Positions 12,595-55,739 are shown, numbered from the stretch's first letter. The stretch is 64,000 bases of DNA from Eledone cirrhosa (GCA_964016885.1 OZ024741.1:358360001-358424000); one strand, 5' to 3'. Program-made: numbers and translations. The notes: generated by a model not told the origin, from the letters alone.

Positions 12595-12645
12595 AGTTTA
12601 AGCAAAGGATCGTTGCTTTCACCCTTAATGGGATCTTCTGAAACT
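12595..12645 (-). ncRNA. Hammerhead-like ribozyme motif with variant core CAGAAGA
   Basis: AGTTT-CAGAAGA-TCCC attaa GGGT-GAA-AGCAA cgatcct TTGCT-T-AAACT; stems I, II and III pair. Confidence 0.65.
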
Positions 12646-12840
12646 AAAAACATCAATCTGTGAACGCAGAAGTAAATATTTCGAAAAACGTTGCAGCCGA
12701 AGGAAAACAGGAAGACGATACTTTGGTTCGTGAAGACGTTCCCTAGCAATGAACGGAAAATAGCGAACATAATACGTCATCAATGTTCGTCAGATTGTCG
12801 TAATGCAGACAGTCAGGCATACAGACAGATATTATAAGAG

Positions 12841-12950
12841 TTTAAATCCTGCCGAGGTTAACTTTGCCTTTCATCCTTACGGGGTCGATAAAATAAAGTA
12901 CCAGTAATGCATTGGGTAATTGCTGGCCTTGTGCCAAAAGTAGAAACAAT
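12841..12950 (+). mobile_element. SINE family A, 5'-truncated, with TSD
   Basis: Family A body flanked by TTATAAGAG direct repeats. Confidence 0.75.
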
Positions 12951-13304
12951 TATAAGAGCGCTACGGAGATGGATAACCGGCGCCTAACACCCCTTTAACA
13001 ACAGAAAATTGAAAAATAAAAGCTGTAGTTAATATCTTTAGACCACAAGGAATATATAAATGCAAGTTTGAAATCAATCGGAGTAGAAATGTGGATTTGT
13101 ATAGACTTTGCAAAAATGAGGGGACACACACAGACAACAACAATTTTATATATATATATAGATAAGATAAGATATATAGATAGATAACTCACACCGGAAT
13201 TATACGAAAAATAGACAAGAATTATGTACGTTATTTGTTGGTTTATAAAAGTAGAATTAAATTGTATTTACCAAAAAAACTTCATGAACTTCACTGTCTT
13301 GACT

Positions 13305-13465
13305 ACGAGAGAGATCAAGAGATAGAGATTGAGTGAGAGAGAGAGAGAGAGAGGGGGGGGGAGAGAGATATAGAGAGAGATAGATAGATAGATAGAGAGA
13401 GAGAGAGAGTCTGTAAGACCAAGATAGATAGATAGAGAGAGAGGGAAAGAGAGAGAGAGAGAGAA
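13305..13465. repeat. (GA)n/(GATA)n microsatellite
   Basis: Direct inspection. Confidence 0.9.
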
Positions 13466-14024
13466 AGTCTGTAGATCCAAATGGTCCGTAGAAAGCAAAT
13501 GTTTTACATCGTTACTCTCAGGAACTGCTTCGAACTGCCTTTTTCTGGGTCTAAAACAGGCTATTTATATCTGTCGCTTCCTCTGTCCCCTGCATTGAGA
13601 ACCACTGGGGTGACCTCGAGAGATCGCCCACGCACAGACTTGTTTACGCCCAAAAGAAGGTAACCCAGAATTTGACTGTTAAATGTCACTCAGGGGGTCA
13701 AAGCGTGGACAGATTTCGCTACATATCAACACGTTCTTGCCATTGTAGGCTGAAAATTAATGGCGTTCTTCTCACTTAATCCTCCGTGAGTAAAATATTT
13801 TCGATGAATTTTAAATATCACACTAGAATGTTCATATTAACACGTAATTTAAATTTTACCGATCTAGCTATGCTCTGTGATTACAAATCCGCGCAGGCCA
13901 TCTTCTAACAAAATGCTTACTTACAATACAACTTCCCTTAAAATAATTATATTAATACACAAATTACTTGCTTCATATTTCTCACGCGCTTTTCGAAGGC
14001 TTGCTTTTATTTTTTTCTGGATAT

Positions 14025-14325
14025 GAAGGTATTCGACTCACAATCGTAAGGTCGTGAGTTCGATTCCCGGCGGCGCGGTGTGTCCTTGAGCAAGACACTT
14101 TATTTCCCGTTGCTCCAGTCCACTTAGCTGGTAAAAATGAGTTGTATCTGTAATTCTAAGGGCCAGCCTTGCCACATTCTATGTCATACTGAATCTCCCT
14201 GAGAACTACGTTATGGGTACGCGTGTTTGGGGAATCCTCAGCCACTGGCACGTTAATTAGACGGGCAGGCTATTCCGTTAATCGTATCAACAGGAATACA
14301 CGTCGTCGTAACCGACGGAGTGCCA
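14025..14325 (+). mobile_element. tRNA-derived SINE family B
   Basis: B-box gagttcgattcc and body gtgtccttgagcaagacactt. Related copies near 33825, 46470, 49595, 50330 and 61355. Confidence 0.7.
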
Positions 14326-14480
14326 TCATATCATTTCAGTGTTGCCGTACCCTCTTGAAGATTATAATGATACAATTGGAGCCAATATGGTATCCTACGT
14401 CAGTGACACATAATTATTGATATCACTTATATCAATTATAGTAGACACAAATAAAATGCGTATGTATGTATGTATGTATG

Positions 14481-53650: not shown

Positions 53651-53656
53651 ATTATT

Positions 53657-54522
53657 GGTGGATTGGCAGCATCGGTAGAGGGTCGGACGCCATGCTTTCC
53701 AGCATAGAGTTACGGCCCTTTCCAATCTGAGTTCAAATCCCGCCGAGGTTAACTTTGCCTTTCATCCTTACGGGGTAGATAAAATAAAGTACCAGTAATG
53801 CACTGGGTATTTGCTGGCCTTGTGCCTAAAGTAGAAACAATTATTATTGAGTAGAAACAGTTATAATAATTGTTTCTACTGAAGGCACAAGGCCAGCAAT
53901 TTGGGGGAGAGAGATAGCTGACTAAATCAACACCAGTGCATTACTGTTACTTTATTTTATCGACCCCGTAAGAATAAAAGGCATAGTTATTCAGCGGGAT
54001 TTGAACTCAGAACGTAAAAGGTCATAACTCTATGCTGCAAAGTATGGTGTCTGACGCTCTTCCGATACTGCCAATCGGTTTAATAATAATAATCAACCTC
54101 GTTTATTATAATAATTGTTTCTACTTTAGGCACAAGGCCAGAATTACCCAGTGCATTACAGGTACTTTATTTTATCGACCCCGTAAGGATGAAAGGCAAA
54201 GTCTACCTCGGCGAGTATCGGTAGAGCGTTGGACAACATGCTATGTGGCATATAATTTCCTCCCTTTACGTTCTGAGTTCAAATCTCACCGAGGTTAGAT
54301 TTGCCTTTCATCCTTACGGGGTCGATAAAATAAAGTACCAGTATTGCACTGGGTTGAATTAATCGATATTCCCCTCCCCCAAAACTGTTGGCATTGTGCC
54401 TTTGCTTTTCTTCCTTACATGGTCAATAAAATAAAGCACCAGTAATGCACTGGGGTCTATTTAATTGACTTTCCCATCCCCTTTAAATTGCTGGCCTTGT
54501 GCCTAAAGTAGAAAGAATTATT
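53657..54522. mobile_element. Cluster of SINE family A copies in alternating orientation
   Basis: 53657-53848 (+), 53864-54076 (-), 54110-54212 (-) and 54212-54522 (+). Confidence 0.8.
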
Positions 54523-54740
54523 AAACTCTTTTATCAAGCGTTAAGCTCATAAATGATGATTGTATTGTATTATTCTGATATTTTCCCTTGTTGATCAACG
54601 ATACCGACCTCACCCTACATCTTCCAGGCTAAACGTCTCTCTTCTCTCTTCCCCACTCTCTCATTCTTTTTACGACTGGTCTACTGTCTTGCTCTCTTTC
54701 CCTTCCACTAATCTATCTATCTATCTATCTATATATCTAT

Positions 54741-54997
54741 AATGGGCCTTCTCTCTATATCAGCCTGTAGGTTGAGGAAAAAGAGGAAGAGAGGAAGGGG
54801 TACAAACTCTTCGTACTCCTGGAGATGAGGGTTGTACATTTTTTCGGGGGTATGTGTTGCCCATATGAAATGTCTCCCCCTATTGGGGAAAATCGATTAA
54901 CTTTTAAATTGTATTTGTGGTAATATTTTACACGTTTTTATTGTATGTAAACTTCCCCCTTTGTATTTGTCCCCTTTTTTGTGTCTAATAAAGAAAC
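54741..54997 (+). mobile_element. Tx1-like 3' UTR fragment in (TATC)n
   Basis: Near copy of 45164-45430 with TATC repeats on both sides. Confidence 0.8.
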
Positions 54998-55291
54998 ATA
55001 TCTATCTATCTATCTGTCTGTCTATTTGATTCTCTCTCTCTCATCTTAACGGTCTCCCGGTTCTACATTACCGCGTGGCAAGTATCAGGCTTAAAATCTT
55101 CTAAAAAGACGGAATTGGTACCCAGCGACTTTTCAGCGCAGTGGCTAATGTACTCACCCCGCTTCTAAGATATGCGGGTTTTGATTCCTCATAGATGCTT
55201 CAGTCCAATTTTTTCCGTTTTTCTCAATTATTTTTACGTTTTTCTCAATTATTTTTGCCCAATTTTCTCAATTGTTATTTCTAGTGATTTC

Positions 55292-55461
55292 TAATTGTTT
55301 CTACTTTAGGCACAAGGCCAGCAATTACCCAGTACATTACTGGTACTTTATTTTATCGACCCCGTAAGGATGAAAGGCAAAGTTAACCTCGGGGTCGATA
55401 AAATAAAGTACCAGTAATGTACTGGGTAATTGCTGGCCTTGTGCCTAAAGTAGAAACAATT
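55292..55461. mobile_element. Fold-back SINE family A insertion with TSD
   Basis: ~70-bp perfect inverted SINE 3' ends, flanked by TTATTTCTAGTGAT direct repeats. Confidence 0.8.
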
Positions 55462-55689
55462 ATTTCTAGTGATCGACTATTATTATGGTAATTTAAGGTG
55501 GTGGATTGTCACGCCATGCTTTGCAGCATAGAGTTACAGCCCTTTACAGTCTGAGTTCAAATTCCGCCGAGGTTAACTTTGCCTTTCATCCTTACGGGGT
55601 CAAAGCACCAGTAATGCACTGGGGGTAATTGCTGGCCTTCTGCCAAAAGTAGAAACAGTTATTAGGGTAATTTACCTTCGAACGCACAT

Positions 55690-55739
55690 ATTTCAGAAGA
55701 TCCCATATAAGGATGAAAGTAGAGGTTGTTTGCTTAAAT
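55690..55739 (+). ncRNA. Hammerhead-like motif with CAGAAGA core (divergent copy)
   Basis: ATTT-CAGAAGA-TCC catataa GGAT-GAA-AGTAGA ggttg TTTGCT-T-AAAT. Confidence 0.6.

Follow-up and report, generated by a model that had tools for sequence, protein, structure and literature searches.

The ends of a Penelope-like retrotransposon family in the octopus Eledone cirrhosa (family A) carry hammerhead motifs with A instead of U at core position 4 (CAGAAGA rather than CUGANGA), and this U4A hammerhead is a real, new variant among the known hammerheads. Judging from sequence, we lean towards the view that these pLTR hammerheads, in which A4 is fixed and all stems are kept, still cut RNA, if slowly and probably with the aid of a protein; the A4 core would likely be a tolerated variant and probably a weak ribozyme. 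Search descriptors include U4, which is regarded as nearly invariant, so that an active A4, if true, would widen the hammerhead consensus and mean that a single genome has tens of thousands of uncounted motifs. If A4 is dead, the most successful family here retains the fold without catalysis. The matter bears on the open question of what use hammerheads are to Penelope elements.

The starting point was a stretch of 64,000 nucleotides (the window) in which the original prediction had placed three copies of a CAGAAGA hammerhead. Motifs with this core are present at all three sites, in type I layouts at 12596-12644 (-), 28519-28567 (+) and 55690-55739 (+), and share CAGAAGA, GAA, A15.1-U16.1, the CUU triplet and U at both 10.1 and 11.1, with a stem III of 4-6 bp (Table 1). 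A scan of the window with a loose type I descriptor returned six rows at five sites, i.e., these three, one of them in two registers, plus two hammerhead-like motifs with a canonical CTGATGA core at 27503-27549 (+) and 28977-29015 (-), the former from a family met 11 times among the loci examined. Rfam gave no hammerhead match in the window or in six loci, but this miss is not specific to A4 because three of the six carry canonical-core motifs of the same genome that were likewise missed.

The three window copies do not represent three independent ribozymes but derive from one transposon end, two of them (copies 1 and 2) being young and one (copy 3) old. Copy 2 has lost the 5' arm of its distal helix at an inversion junction (28515), and copy 3 is 5'-truncated at 55691, lacks 6 nt in the 3' strand of stem I and continues into a 3' flank of the old type, CTGTGCTAAT. 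The pLTR fragment with copy 1 is enclosed by a larger repeat of ca. 850 bp (about 12000-12841 (-)) that matches locus L005 as one piece and has internal inverted repeats (L005, L009); its 3' part recurs without a hammerhead at 38732-39344 (+). A short interspersed repeat of ca. 115 bp, presumably resembling octopus SINEs, occurs at 12838-12953 and about 15 other places in the window (e.g., 53729-55665), near all three copies, and a C/T-rich minisatellite of about 3.8 kb with a 24/48-bp period (55850-59650) directly follows copy 3. The window also holds a long inverted repeat (1535-3109 / 9137-10711, 1,575 nt at 99%, 6 kb between the arms) and a hairpin with 298-bp arms (47476-48082).

Table 1. 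Coordinates of the hammerheads and the elements that carry them (window positions unless a locus is named).
Feature	Position	Strand	Remarks
Copy 1, full type I hammerhead	12586..12661	-	young subfamily
Copy 1 distal stem I	12661-12653 with 12594-12586	-	followed by 7-nt bulge
Copy 1 stem I	12645-12641 with 12599-12595	-	
Copy 1 core CAGAAGA	12640-12634	-	A4 = 12639
Copy 1 stem II CCC/GGG		-	U·U base; GAA 12620-12618
Copy 1 stem III	12617-12601	-	predicted cut between 12600 and 12599
pLTR fragment of Penelope-like element bearing copy 1	12568..12784	-	87% to L045
Copy 2 hammerhead	28518..28568	+	core 28523-28529, A4 = 28524
Copy 2 predicted cut	between 28563 and 28564	+	
Short fold-back insertion in (TA)n with copy 2	28468..28679	+	
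Inverted tail piece of this fold-back	28468-28518		
pLTR end and tail of this fold-back	28515-28679		97.6% to L045
Copy 3, old-subfamily hammerhead	55691..55749	+	core 55694-55700, A4 = 55695
Copy 3 predicted cut	between 55735 and 55736	+	
Family C	L340:2540-2620; L368-L387; G000:C1:56371780 and 300 other places		

These fragments come from a Penelope-like retrotransposon of 3.26 kb whose protein has Hydra-clade motifs. At locus L045, direct copies of the motif at 1027 and 4286 delimit a unit of 3,259 bp whose ORF begins about 200 nt past the first motif, and the ORF between paired motifs encodes a reverse transcriptase followed by a C-terminal endonuclease. The element thereby shows the features of an EN+ Penelope-like element, i.e., a single ORF of this kind with a GIY-YIG-type endonuclease, pLTRs, tandem and inverted insertions and a tail; identity with Naiads was rejected because the endonuclease is C-terminal. 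Pfam gave no match for two element proteins, and the motifs RWR/RWC, DKT, a CxCX5C linker (CNCRNRVDC), CxxC (CDLC) and CxH (CKH) are present in the ORF. The Hydra clade is defined by an RWK-like motif, DKT, CxCX5C, CxxC and CxH around a conserved E and N, and a (TA)n target (PMC8557442). Family A has these protein motifs and (TA)n flanks but departs from the clade in its hammerhead (A4 instead of a canonical core) and its unit (3,259 bp instead of generally under 3 kb). A quick tree, which held no named Hydra reference families, groups it with P0001 and with families of its own genome (SH-aLRT 98). Relatives of the protein numbered 143 among 8,000 scored candidates (best 56%) and none in viral contigs, the nearest Atlas clusters lean to Mollusca (few records), and open frames of up to 726 aa persist.

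Inverted truncated copies and (TA)n targets (L037-L048) together with two kinds of 3' end (40 short and 25 with a tail among 70 genomic copies, plus 5 others) form the Penelope pattern. In 65 of the 70 copies the 3' end is 18-35 nt or over 60 nt downstream of the predicted cut, which implies that most copies were reverse-transcribed from RNA that was uncut at that ribozyme; insertions end just past the distal helix. The window itself holds remains of other such elements, i.e., a fold-back (17802-18768 / 20297-21248) around an ORF resembling the end of a Penelope reverse transcriptase (19363-20358) and decayed ORF remnants of other Hydra-like Penelopes at 24253-25063 (+), 1296-1515 (-) and 4355-4459 (-) with 31-52% identity to the family protein.

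Across the 3.0-Gb genome, the family A pattern with CAGAAGA has 22,285 exact matches and its reversed control none, which places the family far beyond chance, and with T in place of A4 the pattern matches 107 times. A lineage-wide U4A core in a hammerhead homologue that CUGANGA descriptors miss, as originally proposed, is thus what the genome contains, rather than the majority of CTGAAGA copies that would have spoken against it. Some of the T4 matches are inversion junctions at an odd palindrome, TTC-N-GAA (L035, L058), and T4 copies are about as frequent as sporadic change would make them, to judge from the 351 matches of a looser family A pattern with a letter other than A at position 7. All 37 motifs in 30 loci chosen by the endonuclease protein alone read CAGAAGA. 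An older subfamily, reached with a search whose anchor lay wholly 3' of the core (269 matches), has A4 too, in 25 of the 28 alignments that cover position 4 (46 alignments in all); the bulk of the 22,285 copies stem from a single young burst (median 94% to L045). Contigs from seven runs show no letter but A at position 4 where it is covered, and being mostly low-depth pieces they are not counted as support. The motif pattern has no match in viral contigs or in prokaryote genome contigs.

Three helices surround the core of family A with stem I open, and stem I runs through 5 bp and a 7-nt bulge into a distal helix of 9 bp. The U-rich bulge and a loop II ending in A are candidate parts of a stem I-loop II contact; over 49 related motifs, distal helices are barely above shuffles (mean 4.3 vs 4.1). 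Six positions of the core C3-U4-G5-A6-N7-G8-A9 match, and position 4 is A in both families with this variant. Hammerheads also have G12-A13-A14, A15.1-U16.1 and an NUH cleavage triplet; in family A we find GAA, A-U at 15.1-16.1 and CUU, with U·U at 10.1-11.1. The U·U juxtaposition at the base of stem II, also pointed out originally, is there; it is published and normal for the Hydra clade: in File S2 of Craig et al. 2021, 26 Hydra-clade rows, all CUGA, include 14 with U at 10.1 and 11.1 (PMC8557442), and family A shares this mismatch with variants reported by Perreault et al. 2011 (PMC3088659). An alternative stem II register pairing A9 with U11.1 was rejected because the U·U layout matches these published Hydra motifs.

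Of the pairing evidence first put forward for the three copies, the covariation of stem I did not survive. The A of copy 3 is flank because the family match begins at 55691, and its AAAT results from the 6-nt deletion between two TTAA words (also present in L092), so that the apparent change is an artefact of a junction and a deletion and not compensatory. It is the only both-sided change among 13 pairs (ATTT/AAAT), a score that 169 of 500 shuffles match. Stem III is indeed kept at 4-6 bp and is full and non-palindromic as claimed, unlike in most canonical families of this genome, but its differences are one-sided (G-U/A-U, C-G/U-G) and one of them breaks a pair in copy 2.

Constraint is seen instead between subfamilies. 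We set 46 alignments of the old subfamily (median 82% to L045) against 201 of the young one (median 94%), with the 5' arm of the old subfamily known from 8 copies and flank counts excluded because (TA)n ends inflate them. Between the two, the majority letter changes at 6 of 19 positions in loops and bulges but at none of the 57 in stems and core. Without the 21 positions forced by the search patterns, 0/36 stem and core positions remain against 6/19 (Fisher p = 0.0009), and the stems alone give 0/28 unforced positions (p = 0.0025); the core alone, with 0/8, is not significant (p = 0.14). In family A the hammerhead is predicted at -13.0 kcal/mol, above the minimum-energy fold at -15.1 kcal/mol, and folding z-scores range from -1.9 to +0.5. 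In 11 of 12 contexts, which are not independent, the core is more often unpaired with its natural than with a swapped base at position 4 (6/7 for A4, 5/5 for U4). An off-fold enabled by A4 was rejected since it appears in the young subfamily only and is absent across families.

The genome also contains a sister family in which the U-CC/GG-U stem II of family A goes with a canonical core (7,269 matches), and the nearest related ORFs have canonical motifs with short palindromic stems III downstream (L358, L360, L362). Among metagenome loci of relatives, 42 of 78 gave 53 hammerhead rows (47 CUGANGA, 2 CCGA, 1 CGGA, 2 U3-A8 with U4 and 1 weak UAGACAA), none with a CAGANGA core. Long stems III occur outside the A4 families as well, in the canonical L007-type family and in relatives of family C; distinctive of family A is the combination of A4, long stem III and CUU triplet.

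Published systems resemble it to different degrees. The Hydra-clade hammerheads of Craig et al. 2021 are likewise type I motifs in pLTRs of elements with a C-terminal endonuclease, a (TA)n target and a short, U·U-based stem II, but the 26 rows listed there have CUGA, short stems III and tiny loops where family A has CAGAAGA, a stem III of 5-6 bp, a loop of 5-7 nt and CUU; Hydra-1_oBim is a different, canonical family, and searches of that paper's supplement did not turn up the family A motif (PMC8557442). According to the accessible part of Cervera and De la Pena 2014, minimal dimeric PLE hammerheads share the pLTR site, mostly single truncated copies, inverted pairs and low expected activity, but their stem III is lacking or shrunk and their core variant is U3-A8 rather than A4 (PMC4209133). 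We found no report of a natural U4A hammerhead in the literature surveyed, including the main texts of PMC6155905 and PMC11014351 (no occurrence of U4A or CAGA); small PLE hammerhead variants are incompletely covered there and novelty is to that extent not secure.

A second A4 hammerhead, unrelated to the first, was met during a census of the loci examined (family C; Table 1). A pattern left open at positions 4 and 7 matches 301 times in the genome, and among 100 matches listed 96 have A4, 3 T and 1 C, with position 7 varying between A and U. The unit is non-coding, ca. 495 bp long and present in tandem and inverted copies with one type I hammerhead each, which has an 8-bp stem I, a GUC triplet and G-C at 10.1-11.1 and is the minimum-energy fold in the copy tested. 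In these respects it resembles non-LTR retrozymes as described in PMC7229834 and bioRxiv 10.64898/2026.07.22.740005, but it differs in A4, in length (usually 150-450 bp there) and in its frequent inverted arrangements. Among 14 copies from 20 loci, one pair of stem III is G-C in 7 and A-U in 5, a single event; 19 of 500 shuffles attain the covariation score of the whole structure, and A13G occurs in 3 of the 14. Relatives at ca. 70% (L069, L252, L006) have CUGAUGA and different but paired stems. Because families A and C both have U4 relatives, A4 likely arose twice independently.

If family A hammerheads are active, tandem pLTR-ORF-pLTR transcripts would be trimmed to unit length at CUU, and a slow ribozyme could do so while sparing the start of reverse transcription; the extension of copies past the cut site fits a slow ribozyme. 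An attenuated core may also suit a ribozyme that folds as a monomer with a long stem III, whereas most canonical families of this genome have a short palindromic stem III and would be dimer-dependent. Perreault et al. 2011 describe a contact of U4 with the A6-N7 phosphate and cite U4C as a natural, weak but viable viroid variant (PMC3088659), and the Poseidon hammerhead of Anolis cuts only with its protein (PMC11167929). To look for traces of cleavage, we collected copies with a 5' junction between G12 and stem I (831 matches in family A, 319 in the canonical family B). Junctions fall on the predicted cut site in 1 of 20 cases for A (30 loci) and 4 of 20 for B (20 loci); by eye, about 6 of about 70 junctions among 100 listed family A rows do so, over about 20 positions, and some of them reflect stem I microhomology. 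No clear pile-up at the cut site is seen in either family, and the test is hence uninformative on cleavage.

Slow cutting has to be weighed against the rather unlikely case that U4A switched catalysis off and the fold was kept to bind a transposon protein or to direct reverse transcription to begin immediately 3' of stem I. The constraint data are compatible with it, as the stems but not the core alone are significantly constrained, and so are insertions that stop just past the distal helix and A13G in family C. Every single change in the CUGA turn led to low activity, the C3-G8 swap being the exception (PMC9901934). Poseidon hammerhead mutants still insert in vitro, where reverse transcription starts in uncut RNA (PMC11167929), and Naiads thrive without canonical hammerheads, so the family A element may not need cleavage. 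Against this case, no other core base differs between the family A subfamilies, the free position N7 does vary in family C, and it would be the same core loss, of all possible ones, that was fixed in two unrelated families.

Neutral hitchhiking, in which a damaging change in a master copy was amplified with an unselected motif, is improbable and already disfavoured, even though the young burst accounts for most copies and copy 1 travels within another repeat. In family A, the change could have been made by a template switch at the TTC-N-GAA palindrome, where inversion junctions do occur, but family C has no such palindrome around position 4 and shows a two-sided stem change with A4 kept, and the unforced stem positions of family A are unchanged where loops are not. 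Octopuses are a group with heavy RNA editing. It is conceivable, as a speculative and highly improbable alternative, that A-to-I editing at the CAG beside stem I restores an imino proton at position 4 and turns cleavage on under host control; the convergence of two families in one host on A and a natural G4 core beside a related element (L183) would agree with such a switch, but A4 lies outside any long duplex in the hammerhead fold. Slow, probably protein-aided cutting is the reading that we prefer for family A. More tentatively, as a possibility rather than an expectation, U4A may be an active core that evolved twice within one animal lineage, in an autonomous Penelope with more than 22,000 copies and in an unrelated retrozyme-like repeat, and that throttles monomer-competent ribozymes gated by proteins or host factors, a class overlooked by CUGANGA searches. 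This genome holds matched A4 and U4 families, with close U4 relatives for family C, so that cleavage rate, need for dimers and protein aid can be compared directly.

Other departures from the canonical core were met along the way. U4C motifs (CCGANGA) with well-paired stems are found at L255:1026, L308 (-):1718, L028:922, L146 and L153, of which L255 and L308 look like one family, and a U4G core (CGGAAGA) whose stems I and III are both paired lies at L183:1409, just downstream of a related metagenome PLE ORF. U3-A8 cores (TTGANAA) occur in several families of the genome and at one metagenome locus (L016, L082, L100, L279, L334, L194).
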